Virus record (IMG/VR): IMGVR_UViG_3300038393_000909
Location: 1-64,000 of that record
Source: a virus
DNA: 64,000 bases
Reading direction: 5' to 3' (one strand)
The position numbers and the translations under genes were made by a program. The notes below the pieces were generated by a model that was given only the letters and a program-made list of their open reading frames with translations, had not been told where the DNA came from and searched no databases. This document shows, piece after piece, positions 24,105 to 40,441 of this stretch (its first letter is position 1; each line of letters starts with the position of its first letter).

Positions 24105-24132
24105 TGTCGGCAAAACGGTCCTTATGCCGACA
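24105..24132. repeat. 28-bp res-site-I-like palindrome A1
   Basis: TGTCGGCAAAAC-GGTC-CTTATGCCGACA. Confidence 0.7.
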
Positions 24133-24153
24133 CAGAGGGGCATCGAACTTTTT

Positions 24154-25316: not shown

Positions 25317-25555
25317 CCGCCGCCCAGCTCCGCGACGCCCTCAAGTCGCTCGGGCTCTCGCAATCAGCGGGAGCCCGCCTCCTCGGCGTGGACGGCAGGA
25401 CCATGCGCCGCTGGTGCGCCGAGCCCGGCCCGAGCGCCCGCGAGGTGCCGCCGCCCGTCGCCCGGTTCCTCTGGCTCATGCAGGCCGCCGGGATCGGCCC
25501 CGCCGAGGTGGAGCGGCTTCTGGAGCCGTTCCTTCGCGAAACCGAAACCCCGTGA
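25313..25555 (+). CDS. XRE-like HTH regulator
   Basis: MTAAQLRDALKSLGLSQSAGARLLGVDGRTMRRW. Confidence 0.8.
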   Translation: MTAAQLRDALKSLGLSQSAGARLLGVDGRTMRRWCAEPGPSAREVPPPVARFLWLMQAAGIGPAEVERLLEPFLRETETP

Positions 25556-25575
25556 AAACGGCCGAATACCCGACA
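25548..25575. repeat. 28-bp res-site-I-like palindrome A2
   Basis: CCCCGTGAAAAC-GGCC-GAATACCCGACA, overlapping the HTH stop codon. Confidence 0.65.
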
Positions 25576-25585
25576 TCAGGAGAAG

Positions 25586-25929: not shown

Positions 25930-25957
25930 TGTCGGGATACTGGTCGTTTTCACGACA
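25930..25957. repeat. 28-bp res-site-I-like palindrome A3
   Basis: TGTCGGGATACT-GGTC-GTTTTCACGACA, 2 bp after a stop codon. Confidence 0.7.
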
Positions 25958-25977
25958 TCGAAAATGGAGGCCAAGCT

Positions 25978-26268
25978 ATGAGCGATCATAATTATGTCGT
26001 TGGACGTGTCGTGTTCGGCAGCGTCTCGGACAGTCTCTATCGCGAGGCACTAAAGCAGCGTGACAACGAAACGGCACGGGCCAGCGAGAGCGTGGCTGAA
26101 GTGGCTCGCTTGCGCGCCGAGAACGCCCGGTTGCGCGAGGCGCTAGAGGAGGTCCGCGATTGGCATCCGATGTTCAATGGCGGAGTAAAGCGCGACACAG
26201 CGGAAGATCTCGTCGGCTATATCAAGTACCTCCAGGGTGTCGCGTACAACGCGCTAGTAAAACCCTGA
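25978..26268 (+). CDS. hypothetical protein (cassette between A3 and A4)
   Basis: GGAGG RBS after A3. Confidence 0.65.
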   Translation: MSDHNYVVGRVVFGSVSDSLYREALKQRDNETARASESVAEVARLRAENARLREALEEVRDWHPMFNGGVKRDTAEDLVGYIKYLQGVAYNALVKP

Positions 26269-26269
26269 G

Positions 26270-26297
26270 CGTCGGAAAACTGGCCGTTTTCCCGACA
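26270..26297. repeat. 28-bp res-site-I-like palindrome A4 (extra half-sites at 26342 and 26370)
   Basis: CGTCGGAAAACT-GGCC-GTTTTCCCGACA, 1 bp after a stop codon. Confidence 0.72.
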
Positions 26298-26385
26298 TCG
26301 CGCCGGGTCGGTCCCGGAGCCCATCAAAACAGCCCCGATCCTGTCGGGAAAACGTGTCAGCCTATCAAATGTCGGAGAAACGGTA

Positions 26386-26622
26386 ATGGCGAGCAATCCC
26401 GACGACATCTTCGGACCTTGGGATGGGCCGCCCGATCTGGTGAGCGCCATTGCAGCCGAGGTCATGGGCTTGAAGTGGACCCGTGCCGACACCGAGGACG
26501 AACACTGCGACCGCTACGGCGAGGTGCAGGAGGTCGTTGCCGCGACCATCGCCCGGATGCTGGCCGAGCACCCGACGCACGATTTCCTAGCGGCCTTCTC
26601 CCCCGCCCCGGCCGGGGAGTGA
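26386..26622 (+). CDS. hypothetical protein
   Basis: Stop codon abuts empty site S0. Confidence 0.6.
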   Translation: MASNPDDIFGPWDGPPDLVSAIAAEVMGLKWTRADTEDEHCDRYGEVQEVVAATIARMLAEHPTHDFLAAFSPAPAGE

Positions 26623-26647
26623 GACGGAGACGGTATCCCCCATACCA
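26623..26647. other. empty att-like core site S0
   Basis: GACGGA-gacggta-TCCCCCATACCA. Confidence 0.75.
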
Positions 26648-26664
26648 GCAACAGGAGAGCGAAA

Positions 26665-26829
26665 ATGGAACAGCACAAGATCATCGAAGCGGCAGACACG
26701 CCCGGCAGCATTGGCCCCGGCGACATCGCCCTCACGATCCAATGGCCAGACGGCACGGAGACCGTCGAGCACGTCTCAGAGCAGGCCGCACGGGTGCTCG
26801 GGTACACCTATCCCGACGAGGACGAGTGA
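26665..26829 (+). CDS. 54-aa hypothetical cassette gene X1
   Basis: AGGAG RBS; MEQHKIIEAADTPGSIGPGDIALTIQWPDG... Confidence 0.65.
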   Translation: MEQHKIIEAADTPGSIGPGDIALTIQWPDGTETVEHVSEQAARVLGYTYPDEDE

Positions 26830-26835
26830 GACGGA

Positions 26836-27278
26836 TGGGATTGCGGACATTTCGGCAAGTATTGCTGAGGAGCATTAAATGAAAGCGGCGCACCTTGAAT
26901 ATCTGAAACGTATTGCGACCGATTTAGACCAGATTGGCGCCACAGGCAGAGCTAACCAATTACGGTATATCATCGGTCAACTGTCCGCCCAATCCGCCGC
27001 GCATGATAGGGCCGATGTTGGGGCCGGATGGGTGCTCGTTCCAGCGGAACCGATGCCGGAAATGGTTGCCGCATGGTGGCGCGTAAAGAACACCGGCTCG
27101 ACGGAGCCGGGCGAGACCGGCGAGGATCGCAGCGATTGCGCCGCATACCGGGCGATGGTCGCCGCCGCACCTCGACCGCCGGCAAAAGTTGGGGCCTGAG
27201 TTGGGGCCGGGCCGTTATGGGTTATCCCATAACGAAATTACTTCAACGGCTTAGCGAAGATTTCCGATTTCTGGGATT
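26836..27278 (+). mobile_element. mini integrative element E1 (duplicated 7-mer TGGGATT)
   Basis: 7-mer at 26836-26842 and 27272-27278; arm pairs at 27005/27017 and 27188/27200; IHF-like box at 27239-27256. Confidence 0.75.
26879..27199 (+). CDS. E1 cargo ORF (WVLVPAEP..EM..YRAMVAAAP domain)
   Basis: GAGGAG RBS; reads through the arm repeats. Confidence 0.65.
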   Translation: MKAAHLEYLKRIATDLDQIGATGRANQLRYIIGQLSAQSAAHDRADVGAGWVLVPAEPMPEMVAAWWRVKNTGSTEPGETGEDRSDCAAYRAMVAAAPRPPAKVGA

Positions 27279-27302
27279 TCCCCCATACCAAGAGAGGAAG
27301 CT

Positions 27303-27590
27303 ATGACGGCCTTAGAATACCTCAATGAGGCGGCCACGCCCGGCCAATGGTTCGCCGGGCATTGGGGCGGCCAGTGCCATAAGAAGCACAGCCACTCGGG
27401 CCGAGGTGGTGCCGATCCGTGTGTCTATGAACCTGTTCGGTATGACGGCCCCGAGAACGGCATAGCGACAGAGGATGGCAGATCTGTCCTTGCGAGTAGC
27501 TATGACGGGTTCGAGATGCTGCCTGCCAATGTCGAGTTCGTCGTCGCGCTCGTGAATGCTTTCCGATCCGGCAAGCTCGTGGAGCGGTAG
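27303..27590 (+). CDS. hypothetical cassette gene X2 (ATPGQW..NVEFVVALVNA)
   Basis: GAGG RBS after CCCCCATACCA. Confidence 0.7.
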   Translation: MTALEYLNEAATPGQWFAGHWGGQCHKKHSHSGRGGADPCVYEPVRYDGPENGIATEDGRSVLASSYDGFEMLPANVEFVVALVNAFRSGKLVER

Positions 27591-27603
27591 GCAATTCGAC
27601 GGA

Positions 27604-28079
27604 AGCGATCACGGGCAATTCGGCAAGCATTACACGGGAGTGACAAGTTATGGCGGCTGACCTCGCAGAACTCCGAAGGATGTGCGGAGAATTGGACAAC
27701 CGCGGATACAGTGCGGAAGCGCAAGAGTTTCGCGAGGCCATCGCCGAAATCTCCGCCCTACGCGCCGCGCAGGTTGGGGCCGGTGATGGGGCCGGATGGA
27801 AACCGATTGAGACAGCGCCGAAGTGTGGCAAGCGCATCATCGGATGGGTGCCAGGGTGGGAATACGCCCGCTGCTACGCATTCGTCACAGCCGGCGGCGA
27901 ACCGTTCGGGTGGCGCAACGAAGCCGGTCGCGTGATGGAACACGAACAGCCGACCCATTGGCTGCCGTGGCCCGAACCGCCGCCCGCTGTTGGGGCCGAT
28001 GTTGGGACCGGCACTGATCTACCCGCGTCTGCCTCCTGATACTTCAAGGGCTTAGCGGACATTTCAGGAAGTAGCGATC
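27604..28079 (+). mobile_element. mini integrative element E2 (duplicated 7-mer AGCGATC)
   Basis: 7-mer at 27604-27610 and 28073-28079; arm pairs at 27773/27785 and 27989/28001; IHF-like box at 28040-28057. Confidence 0.75.
27650..28039 (+). CDS. E2 cargo ORF with DUF551-like domain
   Basis: WKPIETAPK...PTHWLPWPEPP. Confidence 0.7.
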   Translation: MAADLAELRRMCGELDNRGYSAEAQEFREAIAEISALRAAQVGAGDGAGWKPIETAPKCGKRIIGWVPGWEYARCYAFVTAGGEPFGWRNEAGRVMEHEQPTHWLPWPEPPPAVGADVGTGTDLPASAS

Positions 28080-28103
28080 CCCCCCATACCAAGCGAGGAA
28101 GCG

Positions 28104-28250
28104 ATGAGCGACGAAACGAAGGCCAAGCTGATCTCTGAGCTTGCCCAACTTCTAGAGGCTCTGCGGACAGGCGAGCTGGACCATTTCGATGTCGGAGACT
28201 GGCTTGAGGATAACGGCAGCCGCGTGCTCGCCGCGCTCAAGGCCGAATAG
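28104..28250 (+). CDS. 48-aa hypothetical cassette gene X3
   Basis: GAGG RBS; MSDETKAKLISELAQLLEALRTGELDHFDVGDWLEDNG... Confidence 0.65.
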   Translation: MSDETKAKLISELAQLLEALRTGELDHFDVGDWLEDNGSRVLAALKAE

Positions 28251-28259
28251 TTCGACGGA

Positions 28260-28681
28260 CGGGGCCACGGAAATTTTGGTAAGTAATCAGCGATGGTGGT
28301 AAATTATGATGGTGTCGCGGAATACATTGGTAATGATTGCGCAAGTTGCGGAGGAGCAAAATCGCAGCAGATTAAACACACCTGTTCGGGTTGAGGCGGG
28401 CGAACTGTCCGCCAATCACGAGGGAGGGGTTGGGGTGAATGTTGGGATGGAAAAGAGCATCGAAACCCGCGCAGCGGATGCCCTGGATGCGATCTACGAG
28501 GAGACGATGAGCAAGCACGTCAACATCGCGAGTTGCAGGGATGCACGTCGCGCTATCATCGTCCAAGCTATTCGCGATGCGCTGGCAGATGTTGGGGTAA
28601 ATGTTGGGGTAAGTGCCCCGCAAGCATAGCCCGGAGCCTGATACTTCAGGCACTTAGCGAGCACTTTGCGCGGACGGGGCC
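28260..28681 (+). mobile_element. mini integrative element E3 (duplicated 7-mer CGGGGCC)
   Basis: 7-mer at 28260-28266 and 28675-28681; arm pairs at 28429/28441 and 28591/28603; IHF-like box at 28642-28659. Confidence 0.75.
28306..28629 (+). CDS. E3 cargo ORF
   Basis: Arm repeats are read as VGVNVG twice. Confidence 0.55.
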   Translation: MMVSRNTLVMIAQVAEEQNRSRLNTPVRVEAGELSANHEGGVGVNVGMEKSIETRAADALDAIYEETMSKHVNIASCRDARRAIIVQAIRDALADVGVNVGVSAPQA

Positions 28682-28704
28682 TCCGAAATACTAGGGAGAG
28701 AGCA

Positions 28705-28920
28705 ATGCAGTGGACCGTATGGGACGAAGACGACGTTGACGGCGATCCGCGGTGTGACCCGCTCGCCCGCGCCTGCAAAGAATGGTTCATCGGCATCTGG
28801 CCCGCCGACAAAGACGAGCCGCTAGTTCGGATCTGTGTCGGCGGCCGGGATGGCGAACACACCGCCCATCACCTCGCGGACAGCTTGAACGACGCGAAGG
28901 CATTCCCGCCGGCAGTATGA
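28705..28920 (+). CDS. hypothetical cassette gene X4
   Basis: GGGAG RBS; stop codon overlaps empty site S4. Confidence 0.65.
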   Translation: MQWTVWDEDDVDGDPRCDPLARACKEWFIGIWPADKDEPLVRICVGGRDGEHTAHHLADSLNDAKAFPPAV

Positions 28921-28939
28921 CGGACAAGGGTTCCGCCAT
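28917..28939. other. empty att-like core site S4
   Basis: ATGACGGA-caagggt-TCCGCCAT (7/8 inverted repeat around a 7-bp spacer). Confidence 0.7.
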
Positions 28940-29000
28940 CAGGTGGATGGTGCCATGAATAGGTGATCCGCGGCTTGACGCTGCGGAACTCCCGTGGCAT

Positions 29001-29020
29001 CGTTTGCATTAATTCGAACG
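29001..29020 (+). promoter_or_regulatory. consensus copy of the genome-wide 20-bp motif CGTTTGCATTAATTCGAACG
   Basis: Exact reverse complement at 47641-47660; about 15 degenerate copies elsewhere. Confidence 0.8.
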
Positions 29021-29281
29021 AGGCGATCATGTCGGAAGCGGACGAGTTCACACGCGTCGCACTGGAGGTGATCGAGCTGTTCCCATCAACACCGGACGAG
29101 CTGCGTGAGTGGTTCATGCTCGAGGTCGGGACGCATCGGAAGCCAGGGCGTGCCCAGCTCGAGTATGGGCTGAAACCGATTCAGGTCTACCGACTTGAAC
29201 AGGCATGCCGCCGCAAGGTCGAAGAGTATGACGCATGGTCCGCCATGCTCGACCGCGCATTCGCATAGGAGAAAGCCAGCC

Positions 29282-29737
29282 ATGAGTAGCGAGTGCCCTC
29301 CCCTGATGCTGAGCGTGATGCCCAACGGCCTGCTCAAGCCGCTCAACCGCTTCGACCAGGAGCACATCTCCAGCCGTTACGCCGTCGGCTCCCGCGTTCG
29401 CGCCAAGATCACCCAGCCGCGCTCTGTTCCCCGCCACAGGCTGTACTGGTCCGTGCTCGCCGAGGTGGTGACCGCCACGGGCGACAGGTGGTGCGACGTC
29501 GAGGACCTGCACGAGTCGGTCAAGATCCGGCTTCGCATGCTGCGCGGTGTCTCGATGCTCGGTGGTGGCGTTCGCTACGTCACCCAGTCAATCAGCTTCG
29601 AATCGATGGACGAGGGGCAGTTCAAGACCTTCTTCGACAAGGCCATGGCCGTGATCACCGAGGACACCGGCATCGACACGCAGGCGATCCTCAAGGAACT
29701 AACGTCTAAGAGTGAGACCCGTGAAGCAGTCGCATAA
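29282..29737 (+). CDS. DUF1367/NinB-like recombination-associated protein
   Basis: PRSVPRHRLYW, SISFESMDEGQFKTFF. Confidence 0.7.
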   Translation: MSSECPPLMLSVMPNGLLKPLNRFDQEHISSRYAVGSRVRAKITQPRSVPRHRLYWSVLAEVVTATGDRWCDVEDLHESVKIRLRMLRGVSMLGGGVRYVTQSISFESMDEGQFKTFFDKAMAVITEDTGIDTQAILKELTSKSETREAVA

Positions 29738-38948: not shown

Positions 38949-39302
38949 ATGTCTGCGGCCATGACGATTACTGACGATACCCCGCTGCGTCTGGCGGACG
39001 CGGTTGTAATTGCATTTCCCCATGGAGGCATGACTGAGGCCGGGCTGCGCAGGGAGGCCAAGCGCGGGCGCCTTGAAATCGAACGGATCGCCGGTAAGGA
39101 CTTCGTCACCCTTGCCGCGATCCGAGAGATGAGAACCCGATGCCACGTCCAGCGAAGGGCGCAAGACTCTGGCTCAGGCCCGAGCGCCTCGACGATCAGG
39201 GACGCGTGCGTGAGCGATCGACATGGATCATCCGGGATGGATCAAAGACGGTCAGCACGGGATGCGCTCCTGAAGCGCGTGCGGACGCTGAAAAGTGCCT
39301 GA
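38949..39302 (+). CDS. excisionase (Xis-like)
   Basis: PLRLADAV..AFPHGGMTEAGLRREAKRGRLEIERIAGKDF; overlaps the 5' end of the integrase. Confidence 0.75.
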   Translation: MSAAMTITDDTPLRLADAVVIAFPHGGMTEAGLRREAKRGRLEIERIAGKDFVTLAAIREMRTRCHVQRRAQDSGSGPSASTIRDACVSDRHGSSGMDQRRSARDALLKRVRTLKSA

Positions 39303-40441
39303 GCGCCTACATTGAGCAGAAGTACCGCCCGGCGCGCAGGCGGCGTGAGATCGAGGAGATCGGGATCGCTGACGTCCTGGCGATCTACCTCGAGGATACC
39401 CGCGAATCCCAGGCCAACAAGCGCGCCTTCGACGGGCGCATCGAGCGCCTCGCTGAATGGTGGGGCGAGAAGACGCTGTCCGAGGTCACGGGCGAGACGT
39501 GCCGGGCCTATGTCGAGCACCGCGCATCCGCCGAGCGACAAGCGGTCAGTGGCAAGCGCGGAGCCGTCGGGAGAAAGGGCACCAGCGGCGGAGCGCGCCG
39601 CGACCTTGAGGACCTGCGCGCGGCGATCAATCATCACCACGGACAAGGACTCCACCGCGAGGCCATCCGCGTGATCCTGCCCGAGAAGGGGGCGGCCCGC
39701 GATCGATGGCTGACCCGGTCCGAGGCCGCGCGCCTCGTCTGGTTCTGCTGGCGCTACCGCGATACCCAGACCTGGAACAAGGGCACGCGCGCCGGCAAGA
39801 GCGTCGTGACCAACAAGCGGTCGCTGCGCCATATCGCGCGCTTCATCCTGATCGGGCTCTATACCGGGACGCGGGCCGGGGCCATCGCTTCAGCCTCGCC
39901 CTATAAGAGCGCCGGTCACTCTTGGGTCGATCTCGAGAGCGGGCGGTTCTACCGGCTCGCCGAGGGCAAGAAGGCGACGAACAAGCGACAGCCGACCGCG
40001 CGCATCCCATCGCGCCTGCTCGCCCATCTCAGGCGATGGTCCAGAGCGACGCAGGGCAAGGACGGGCCGCCCGTCATGCGGACCCATTTCGTCGAATGGA
40101 GGGGCAAGCCGGTCGGGTCGGTGAAGGTCGCTTTCGGCCGGGCCGTGCGCGCGGTCGGCCTGGGCGATGACGTGTCGCCCCACACCCTGCGGCACACCGC
40201 CGCGACGTGGCTCATGCAGCGCGGCGTCGACAAATACGAGGCGGCCGGATTCCTCGGCATGTCGCTCAAGATGATCGACGAGGTCTACGGCCACCACCAT
40301 CCCGATTTCCAGGACAGCATCGACGCGGCGTTCGCGACCCGCAAGCCGGCGAATCAGGGTCCGCACCGCTTCGCCGGACGGCACGTTTCTGTTGGCATAA
40401 CTGTGGGCGTAGAGGGTGACGCCGCCAAGGATATGGTGTAA
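39140..40441 (+). CDS. int: tyrosine integrase
   Basis: YTGTRAGAI (R), KR, SPHTLRHTAATW, VYGHH (Y). Confidence 0.93.
   Translation: MPRPAKGARLWLRPERLDDQGRVRERSTWIIRDGSKTVSTGCAPEARADAEKCLSAYIEQKYRPARRRREIEEIGIADVLAIYLEDTRESQANKRAFDGRIERLAEWWGEKTLSEVTGETCRAYVEHRASAERQAVSGKRGAVGRKGTSGGARRDLEDLRAAINHHHGQGLHREAIRVILPEKGAARDRWLTRSEAARLVWFCWRYRDTQTWNKGTRAGKSVVTNKRSLRHIARFILIGLYTGTRAGAIASASPYKSAGHSWVDLESGRFYRLAEGKKATNKRQPTARIPSRLLAHLRRWSRATQGKDGPPVMRTHFVEWRGKPVGSVKVAFGRAVRAVGLGDDVSPHTLRHTAATWLMQRGVDKYEAAGFLGMSLKMIDEVYGHHHPDFQDSIDAAFATRKPANQGPHRFAGRHVSVGITVGVEGDAAKDMV

Follow-up and report, generated by a model that had tools for sequence, protein, structure and literature searches.

Exact motif spacing in three mini-elements of a soil phage follows the reading frame of related small genes

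The IMG/VR record IMGVR_UViG_3300038393_000909 is a single viral contig of 98,228 bp with 61.6% G+C, and the window analysed here is its first 64 kb (64,000 nucleotides, nt). Between positions 26836 and 28681 it carries three mini-elements, E1, E2 and E3, each bounded by a 7-mer on the left and its recurrence on the right (TGGGATT at 26836 and 27272, AGCGATC at 27604 and 28073, CGGGGCC at 28260 and 28675). The units measure 436, 469 and 415 bp from 7-mer to 7-mer, and the probability of an identical 7-mer at two fixed positions is p = 6e-5 per unit. The original prediction described a base-exact geometry common to all three and attributed it to selection for a helically phased nucleoprotein intasome. 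Every number that it had counted by hand was reproduced by script in E1, E2 and E3: TCCGCC lies at +148 and a pair of short direct repeats, the left arms, at +169; arms repeat with a period of 12 bp; the second right arm starts 39 bp before an 18-nt box beginning with TACTTCA (27200/27239, 28001/28040 and 28603/28642); and 15 bp separate the end of the box from the right 7-mer. The box has three exact matches in the window, only in the units, against a chance expectation of 0.09 even with two mismatches; the left-end motif is likewise confined to the units within the window (chance expectation 0.00), and eight of the ten window copies of GTTGGGG fall inside E1-E3. Each mini-element is a gene, and the three are related small phage genes.

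The three genes stand in an array whose junctions share one layout: a few bases after a stop codon comes GRCGGA, replaced by TTCGATTTC at the TGGGATT junction, and then a 7-nt spacer and a leader. The leader is either of the ordinary kind, YCCSCCATACC followed by a ribosome-binding site (RBS), or of the kind found in E1-E3 (E-type). The array comprises the following features, all on the plus strand; lengths of gene products are in amino acids (aa) and ORF denotes an open reading frame.

26623..26664, plus strand: unoccupied junction J1, with GACGGA, the 7-mer GACGGTA, a TCCCCCATACC leader, an RBS and the next gene
26830..26842, plus strand: left copy of junction J2, GACGGA and the 7-mer TGGGATT
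26843..26878, plus strand: E1 leader with the RCGGNNAWTTYGGYAAGYAWT motif and the RBS GAGGAG
26879..27199, plus strand: E1 gene, 106 aa (P0001), N-terminal module followed by a phrog-matching domain
27005..27028, plus strand: E1 left arm pair, in frame (DRADVGAG)
27188..27211, plus strand: E1 right arm pair, with TGA between the arms and the second arm outside the ORF
27213..27234, plus strand: palindrome with a 9-bp stem in place of the usual E1 tail, 39-bp spacing kept
27239..27278, plus strand: E1 trailer, 18-nt box and 15-nt spacer, with the right 7-mer TGGGATT
27303..27590, plus strand: ordinary cassette gene C, 95 aa, CCCCATACC-type leader
27598..27610, plus strand: left copy of junction J3, GACGGA and AGCGATC
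27650..28039, plus strand: E2 gene, 129 aa (P0002), N-terminal helical hairpin and weakly DUF551-like middle
27773-27796 and 27989-28012, plus strand: E2 arm pairs
28040..28079, plus strand: E2 trailer, box and 15-nt spacer, with the right 7-mer AGCGATC
28104..28250, plus strand: ordinary cassette gene D, 48 aa
28254..28266, plus strand: left copy of junction J4, GACGGA and CGGGGCC
28306..28629, plus strand: E3 gene, 107 aa (P0003)
28429-28452 and 28591-28614, plus strand: E3 arm pairs
28642..28681, plus strand: E3 trailer, box and 15-nt spacer ending in GCGGA, with the right 7-mer CGGGGCC
28705..28920, plus strand: ordinary cassette gene E, 71 aa
28919..28944, plus strand: unoccupied junction J5, GACGGA CAAGGGT TCCGCCATCAGG

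A single plus-strand ORF with an RBS fills each unit. The 5' part of the unit consists of a leader of 43-46 nt and an N-terminal helical-hairpin module of 41-42 codons, after which the left arms follow as a two-fold, in-frame GTTGGGGCC repeat. The 12-bp period of this repeat corresponds to four codons (a VGAx unit), so that a pair reads VGxxVGxx. Beyond the left arms lie a swapped middle domain, a second repeat pair, a tail and a trailer of 33 nt, the sum of box and spacer. The second arm and the tail together account for the 39 bp before the box, 13 codons in all. Four IMG/VR contigs of related uncultured soil phages (G001-G004) bring five further units (G1a, G2a, G2b, G3a and G4a). Among these and E1-E3 the right-hand geometry is kept in 7/7 complete units and the left-hand geometry in seven of eight; the exception is G3a, whose arms are closer to the left end by 12 bp, the length of exactly one repeat, and which lacks TCCGCC. 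In five of the seven complete units a TGA stop stands directly 5' of the TACTTCA box.

The spacing follows the reading frame and not the DNA helix. All constant distances within the ORF are whole codons, namely the 123 nt from ATG to the arms, the 12-bp arm period and the 39 bp to the stop, and the seven middle segments (159, 192, 138, 144, 105, 171 and 180 bp) are all multiples of 3. Taken modulo 10.5, the distances from left to right arms are 0, 3, 4.5, 4.5, 4.5, 6 and 7.5, while modulo 3 they are always 0. Because the distances between arm pairs are scattered in this way, there is no helical phase; together with the lack of terminal inverted repeats in the units, this speaks against the proposal that the spacing was selected for a phased intasome. 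A gene plan of this kind would give base-exact geometry, with insertions and deletions kept out of the coding parts and all exchange between copies homologous and in register. Exact spacing between motifs need not imply a phased protein-DNA machine when the motifs are codons.

Other parts of the original prediction fared differently. Its view that the units are functional rather than decayed duplications is supported by an intact ORF and RBS in each, by ratios of non-synonymous to synonymous polymorphism (pN/pS) of 0.2-0.5 in close pairs, albeit from small counts, and by the recurrence of the architecture in at least 20 protein clusters. The common continuation of the left ends is real in that RCGGNNAWTTYGGYAAGYAWT fits all three units, but the consensus as written was one T short and fits none. 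The claim that the intervening DNA is otherwise dissimilar holds for the middle (138-192 bp) and for the E1 tail, which are truly unrelated, but not for the N-terminal coding part, which aligns gap-free at 39-54% identity. By BLASTP, E1 matches E2 at 37.5%, and a 27-nt tail is homologous among the relatives. Two of the three units carry premature stops: in E3 the tail is cut short by a TAG that precedes the ancestral TGA by four codons, at a place where G1a has GAG (window 28609-28629), and in E1 a TGA lies between the two right arms. These two units can thus do without the C-terminal tail or are losing it.

Comparison with the relatives reveals mosaic genes. Identity between units is 39-64% in the conserved parts, and the units were found only at array junctions. 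Where units share segments at 85% identity or more, the ends of these segments fall in the leader near +27/33, near +130, on the outer edges of both arm pairs, or within the box or trailer. For instance, E2 and G2b are 96% identical through the last base of the left arms and unrelated beyond it. G1a unites the N-terminal module of E1 with the leader start, arms, tail and trailer of E3, and G2b is a chimera whose left end, with AGCGATC, is of E2 type and whose right end, with CGGGGCC, is of E3 type. In G2a, also a chimera, the 5' half is E-type and the 3' half is that of an ordinary gene found by itself in G001. Contigs of three other soil or rhizosphere runs fit the stretch only piecewise, and the pieces begin and end at arms and junctions. 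The position of these breakpoints, at arm edges and junctions, points to exchange at the repeats. In-register exchange preserves all distances and is therefore sufficient to account for a conserved scaffold with dissimilar filling; the middles would be dissimilar because middle domains are exchanged across the repeat pairs.

The same plan extends to a family of proteins. The N-terminal modules align without internal gaps, and a profile made from them gave 27 matches among 1.84 billion representative proteins, about 20 of them small proteins with the same succession of module, VGxxVGxx, varied domain, VGxxVGxx and tail. One of these relatives, P0024 (218 aa), has three VGVNVGV linkers that separate two unrelated domains; several cargo domains can therefore be strung together by this linker. 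From the plan shared by some 20 proteins and from P0024 it follows that the arms are inter-domain linkers of a protein family. Its members are 90-220 aa long and have so far been found only in soil and rhizosphere phages. In the AlphaFold model of the E2 protein, residues 5-45 form a helical hairpin (predicted local distance difference test, pLDDT, 80-95), and the values drop under 50 in the arm region and beyond. A search of the ESM Atlas with the N-terminal module returned a best score of 0.84 and was uninformative. The middles of E1-E3 are mutually unrelated: that of E1 matches the C-terminal part of phrog_12449 and phrog_5913; that of E2 is weakly DUF551-like (PF04448) at 14.6 bits, short of the Pfam gathering cut-off of 22 (E = 0.064); and that of E3 had no match in domain and family comparisons. 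A WxPIEtAPK...W(M/Q)PLP pattern was seen by eye in the family members P0013, P0014 and P0023. The common N-terminal module may provide the variable cargo domains with a shared address or with a part that binds a partner.

The junctions are a second level at which the array varies. Their spacers, GACGGTA, TGGGATT, AGCGATC, CGGGGCC and more, recur in largely the same order across the phages with differing genes at their flanks. The J1 7-mer GACGGTA is also found at the first junction of G003, G004 and G002, and the J5 7-mer CAAGGGT at a junction of G002. Some junctions that are filled in the window are empty in relatives: J3 (AGCGATC) is unoccupied in G001, G003 and G004, and J4 (CGGGGCC) is unoccupied in G003 and holds unit G1a in G001. 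The gene 3' of the empty CGGGGCC junction in G003 is 85% identical to the gene 3' of G1a in G001. Left and right 7-mers are the same in E1-E3, G1a, G3a and G4a and differ in G2b. Similar duplications surround genes of other kinds. Two such cases occur in G004, GACGGTA around an insertion that carries an HNH_3 endonuclease gene and GGGGGCA around a different gene, and in G002 TGGGATT stands on both sides of a two-gene block. Duplication lengths lie between 7 and about 14 nt. At the first junction of the G004 array (L140 5034-5709), the free-standing HNH_3 gene and a following AT-rich stretch lie between two copies of GAGACGGTAGA(A/G)CC.

Empty junctions have the form GRCGGA-N7-TCCGCC, with a GRCGGA/TCCGCC stem of only 3-6 bp. 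If the ends of a unit were joined they would read c-N7-RCGGR, in which c varies and the right half is in direct orientation. A circularised unit (c-N7-b) would have no inverted half-sites and would therefore be without the core that a tyrosine recombinase needs. A tyrosine recombinase of about 430 aa (PF00589) is encoded in four of the five genomes and is absent from G004, which is rated 100% complete and carries instead a 207-aa serine recombinase (PF00239; C1 6791-7195). The window has a single one, 10 kb from the array:

39140-40441: tyrosine recombinase, 433 aa

Circle joints, empty-site forms and recombination intermediates were sought in the source sample and none was found among its assembled contigs, a weak negative that covers contigs only. 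No inverted, attC-like partner of GTTGGGG was found near the units on the same strand, and no sigma-70-like promoter or terminator was detected at plus-strand junctions. The duplications around other genes, their varied lengths, the lack of inverted repeats and the case of G004 argue against unit-specific attachment sites and against transposon ends, and speak against the intasome reading as well. The same points favour a general cassette array of the promoter early stem-loop (PeSL) kind.

We hold it probable, with moderate confidence, that E1-E3 are modular gene cassettes subject to PeSL-like shuffling of a polymorphic protein family, and not intasomes. The three would be paralogues of mosaic build within a single family of small modular phage proteins, and related phages and paralogues would swap the middle domain by recombination across the two repeat pairs. 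Whole genes would be swapped across the short conserved junctions (GRCGGA, 7-nt spacer and leader), and a gene added at a junction would leave the 7-nt spacer of that junction on both sides. Exchange would proceed by general or phage-encoded homologous or short-homology recombination rather than by a dedicated site-specific enzyme; a YqaJ-type exonuclease is encoded in the window. Observed directly here, and the basis of this account, are the structure of the genes, their membership in one family, the locking of the spacing to the frame, the mosaic breakpoints and the duplications of junctions around other genes.

Several observations weigh against it and must be set beside other explanations. 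All 20 Val-Gly arms (20/20) are written GTTGGG, which is not explained by coding alone: this dicodon makes up 2 of the 101 Val-Gly pairs in the genome's long genes, and GTT accounts for 12% of Val codons and GGG for 13% of Gly codons. Ten of the 30 arms are one-base non-synonymous variants (D-R, D-G, A-G and V-R), and together with the rare dicodon this looks like constraint or homogenisation at the DNA level. The second right arm of E1 is perfect although it lies behind a stop codon, the 39-bp spacing of E1 is kept across an unrelated 22-bp palindrome, and the non-coding 33-nt trailer is free of gaps in 7/7 units. E1, E2 and the G2 block have duplications of exactly 7 nt, a length below what exchange driven by homology usually requires and one that a staggered cut or a 7-bp crossover would leave; and of the recombination intermediates that such exchange might leave, none was seen in assembled contigs. 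The arm-related points could mean that the GTTGGGGCC pairs, and perhaps the 18-nt box, are cis-acting signals hosted by the genes, be it an iteron-like site for a regulator, partition or replication protein, a Chi-type hot-spot or an RNA signal. Further points on that side are the density of the arms, with 12 sites in one orientation within 1.8 kb and only four other GTTGGGG copies in the 98-kb genome, and the clustering of breakpoints at arm edges, as a hot-spot would predict. This explanation nevertheless appears unlikely. The peptide VG[VA]xVG[VA] is also conserved in distant family members, one of which has three copies between two domains; the motif always lies at domain boundaries, in a stretch predicted to be disordered; and neither an Rfam match nor a promoter or terminator signal was found at the array. 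Concerted evolution through repeated exchange would keep rare codons too, and repeated exchange and conversion across the arms is the likeliest source of their uniform DNA.

An integron-like or lambda-like site-specific system would give the 7-mers a more direct role, with a tyrosine recombinase exchanging strands in the 7-nt spacer of GRCGGA-N7-TCCGCC, cassettes entering only sites with the same spacer, and the GTTGGGG pairs acting as arm-type or accessory sites of a phased complex. Identical 7-mers do flank each unit, with a duplication of exactly 7 nt in several cases, and they are tied to end subtypes across phages; the empty sites resemble a C-O-C' core in being imperfect inverted repeats about a 7-nt centre; most of the genomes (4/5) have a tyrosine recombinase; and the arms are conserved at the DNA level. 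We regard such a system as very unlikely, since the arms are in frame with a four-codon period and no helical phase between pairs, joined ends have no inverted core (RCGGR at the left end is direct, not inverted, relative to GRCGGA), duplications range up to about 14 nt, G2b ends with different 7-mers, and the complete-rated G004 has duplications with only a serine recombinase. The absence of a folded, attC-like same-strand partner of GTTGGGG and, more weakly, of circle and empty-site forms in the source-sample contigs points the same way. Highly doubtful, too, is a two-level, sequence-addressed cassette system, in which a recombinase or a structure-guided single-stranded DNA mechanism would swap genes within the 7-nt address spacers of GRCGGA-N7-TCCGCC and the in-frame GTTGGGGCC pairs would be dedicated in-frame domain-swap sites; if true, it would amount to a built-in domain-shuffling device for an early protein family. 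As for non-autonomous miniature transposons of the MITE (miniature inverted-repeat transposable element) or MPME kind, mobilised in trans and inserting into the junction motif with a 7-bp target-site duplication, the units do resemble them in size and content (415-469 bp with one small ORF, like the 439-bp MPME1; PMC3029335), in their exact 7-bp direct repeats and in the availability of an occupied and an empty site for comparison in G001 and G003. Transposition is extremely unlikely all the same. The units lack terminal inverted repeats, at their ends stand the leader and trailer of a gene, in which the outermost ~25 nt on either side track junction position and not cargo, the same duplications surround unrelated genes without these ends, and no transposase candidate was seen. 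Moreover, the units are mosaic and not copies of one element, whereas MPME copies are identical and without duplication.

Beyond the arms, the array contains further possible signals. Leader offsets 7-20 are complementary to offsets 139-152 around TCCGCC (window 26843-26856 with 26975-26988; also in E2, G2a, G2b and G4a). This is the best register in five of eight units and is also predicted by RNAalifold, with 95% of cells paired against 24-52% when the partner is slid; no pair is changed on both sides, and the covariation term is -0.08. A box-to-leader pairing of 5 bp (AAGUA/UACUU) was rejected, as it fails in E2 and G2b, and an Rfam scan of the array gave no match. The palindrome in the E1 tail (27213-27234), CGTTATGGG-TTAT-CCCATAACG, is perfect and replaces the coding tail. 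In a soil variant contig it has one compensatory change (27218/27229) and two stem-breaking changes. That it is a copy of a 20-bp palindrome found genome-wide was considered and rejected. The latter, AT-rich and CGTTYGMATTAATKCRAACG-like, occurs at about 17 sites at gene boundaries (window 2441-59727, e.g. 29001 and 59708), and the copy at 29001 directly follows the cassette array. Just upstream of the array lie 12-4-12 palindromes of the form TGTCGGGAAAAC-N4-GTTTTCCCGACA at 24105-24135, 25548-25580, 25930-25960 and 26270-26300, with half-sites of this type near 26342 and 26370. They are kept at the same place in G001 and G003, and palindromes also lie upstream of the arrays in L089 and L047. 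From their sequence and position they look like putative operator or regulatory sites for array transcription. Two minus-strand copies of GTTGGGG near 95.3 kb are unrelated to the units.

The host of the array is a temperate, Bradyrhizobium-phage-like myovirus, and E1-E3 lie in its accessory early-gene array. Its contig is of soil metagenome origin and has partial relatives in other soil and rhizosphere runs. Besides the YqaJ-type exonuclease and the tyrosine recombinase, it has genes for a tail sheath, a class II ribonucleotide reductase and a helicase. The sheath protein shares 65% identity with its counterpart in Bradyrhizobium phage BDU-MI-1, the closest isolated phage. BDU-MI-1 is without the array, because its sole junction-like match is on the opposite strand and inside a coding sequence. 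A blastn search with 26000-29500 gave no match among 50,697 phage records. Scanning viral contigs with the box pattern gave 109 matches, three of them true relatives, while the 13 matches in genome contigs and the eight in metagenome contigs were chance matches only. An arm-pair scan of viral contigs had, among the matches listed, unrelated VGVG simple repeats, and viral loci were sought for the family proteins P0024, P0014 and P0012 and none was found. In a contig from the probable source sample (run X1), whose loose end lies at window 27286, TGGGATT is followed by the sequence found after the unit in G003; at least two array variants therefore co-occur in this soil sample.

Among known systems, the closest counterpart at the level of genes is PeSL modular shuffling in the hyperplastic regions of T4-type phages (Arbiol et al. 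2010, PMC2839356; Comeau et al. 2014, PMC4122927), where a gene between two boundary copies is lost or gained via exchange between the copies (PMC2839356). In both cases small accessory genes without known function are arrayed, each bounded by a short conserved intergenic sequence, and single genes are inserted, lost or replaced between related phages exactly at these boundaries, so that an inserted gene is flanked by two boundary copies. Here, the conserved intergenic motif coincides with such gain, loss and replacement, and contig joints fall at the junctions. The boundary is much shorter, however (6 nt, a 7-nt spacer and a leader of ~20 nt), and the early promoter and terminator stem-loop of PeSLs were not detected at the junctions. 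The host differs as well, being a GC-rich temperate myovirus, and mini-circles have been demonstrated for PeSLs, whereas only assembled contigs were available here and no circle joint was among them. In-frame exchange inside genes has no counterpart in the PeSL description.

Other systems resemble the stretch in single traits. With lambda-type attP it shares an identical 7-nt sequence at both ends, which corresponds to the overlap, and direct-repeat arm motifs at fixed distances, but the arms here are linker codons without phase between pairs, the joined ends of a unit would have no inverted core half-sites, the duplications are not unit-specific and a tyrosine integrase is not found in every genome. 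Like an integron, the array is an ordered, one-orientation series of single-gene cassettes separated by short sites; unlike an integron, it has neither attC hairpins with a core GTTRRRY and inverse core nor an IntI-type integrase beside an attI with a common promoter, and each gene has its own RBS and leader. MPME1 and MPME2 of mycobacteriophages, also ~440 bp long with one ORF of ~120 codons and located within phage genomes, have 11-bp inverted repeats, identical copies and 6 bp added at one end without duplication (PMC3029335). The units described here are divergent mosaics without terminal inverted repeats, and near-identical copies at unrelated sites, as expected of MITEs and MPMEs, were not found.

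At the level of domains, the likeness is to polymorphic protein families. Contact-dependent inhibition (CDI) and Rhs toxins, with their VENN or PxxxxDPxGL motif, and the internal proteins of T4, with a common N-terminal targeting sequence, combine a constant N-terminus, a conserved motif as DNA crossover point and interchangeable domains. The E proteins, too, have a constant N-terminal part, a short motif at which crossover would take place and unrelated swapped domains. They differ in being only 90-220 aa long, in having the motif duplicated and on both sides of the variable domain, and in that no toxin/immunity pair was seen. A hairpin with interchangeable cargo would make these proteins candidates for host takeover or counter-defence, in which the shared module could serve to find a common partner. 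Taken together, the stretch is a combination of known modular shuffling with a polymorphic, domain-swapping protein family, and it offers a clear example outside T4 of the reshuffling of phage accessory genes at two scales, that of genes at junctions and that of domains at an in-frame linker.

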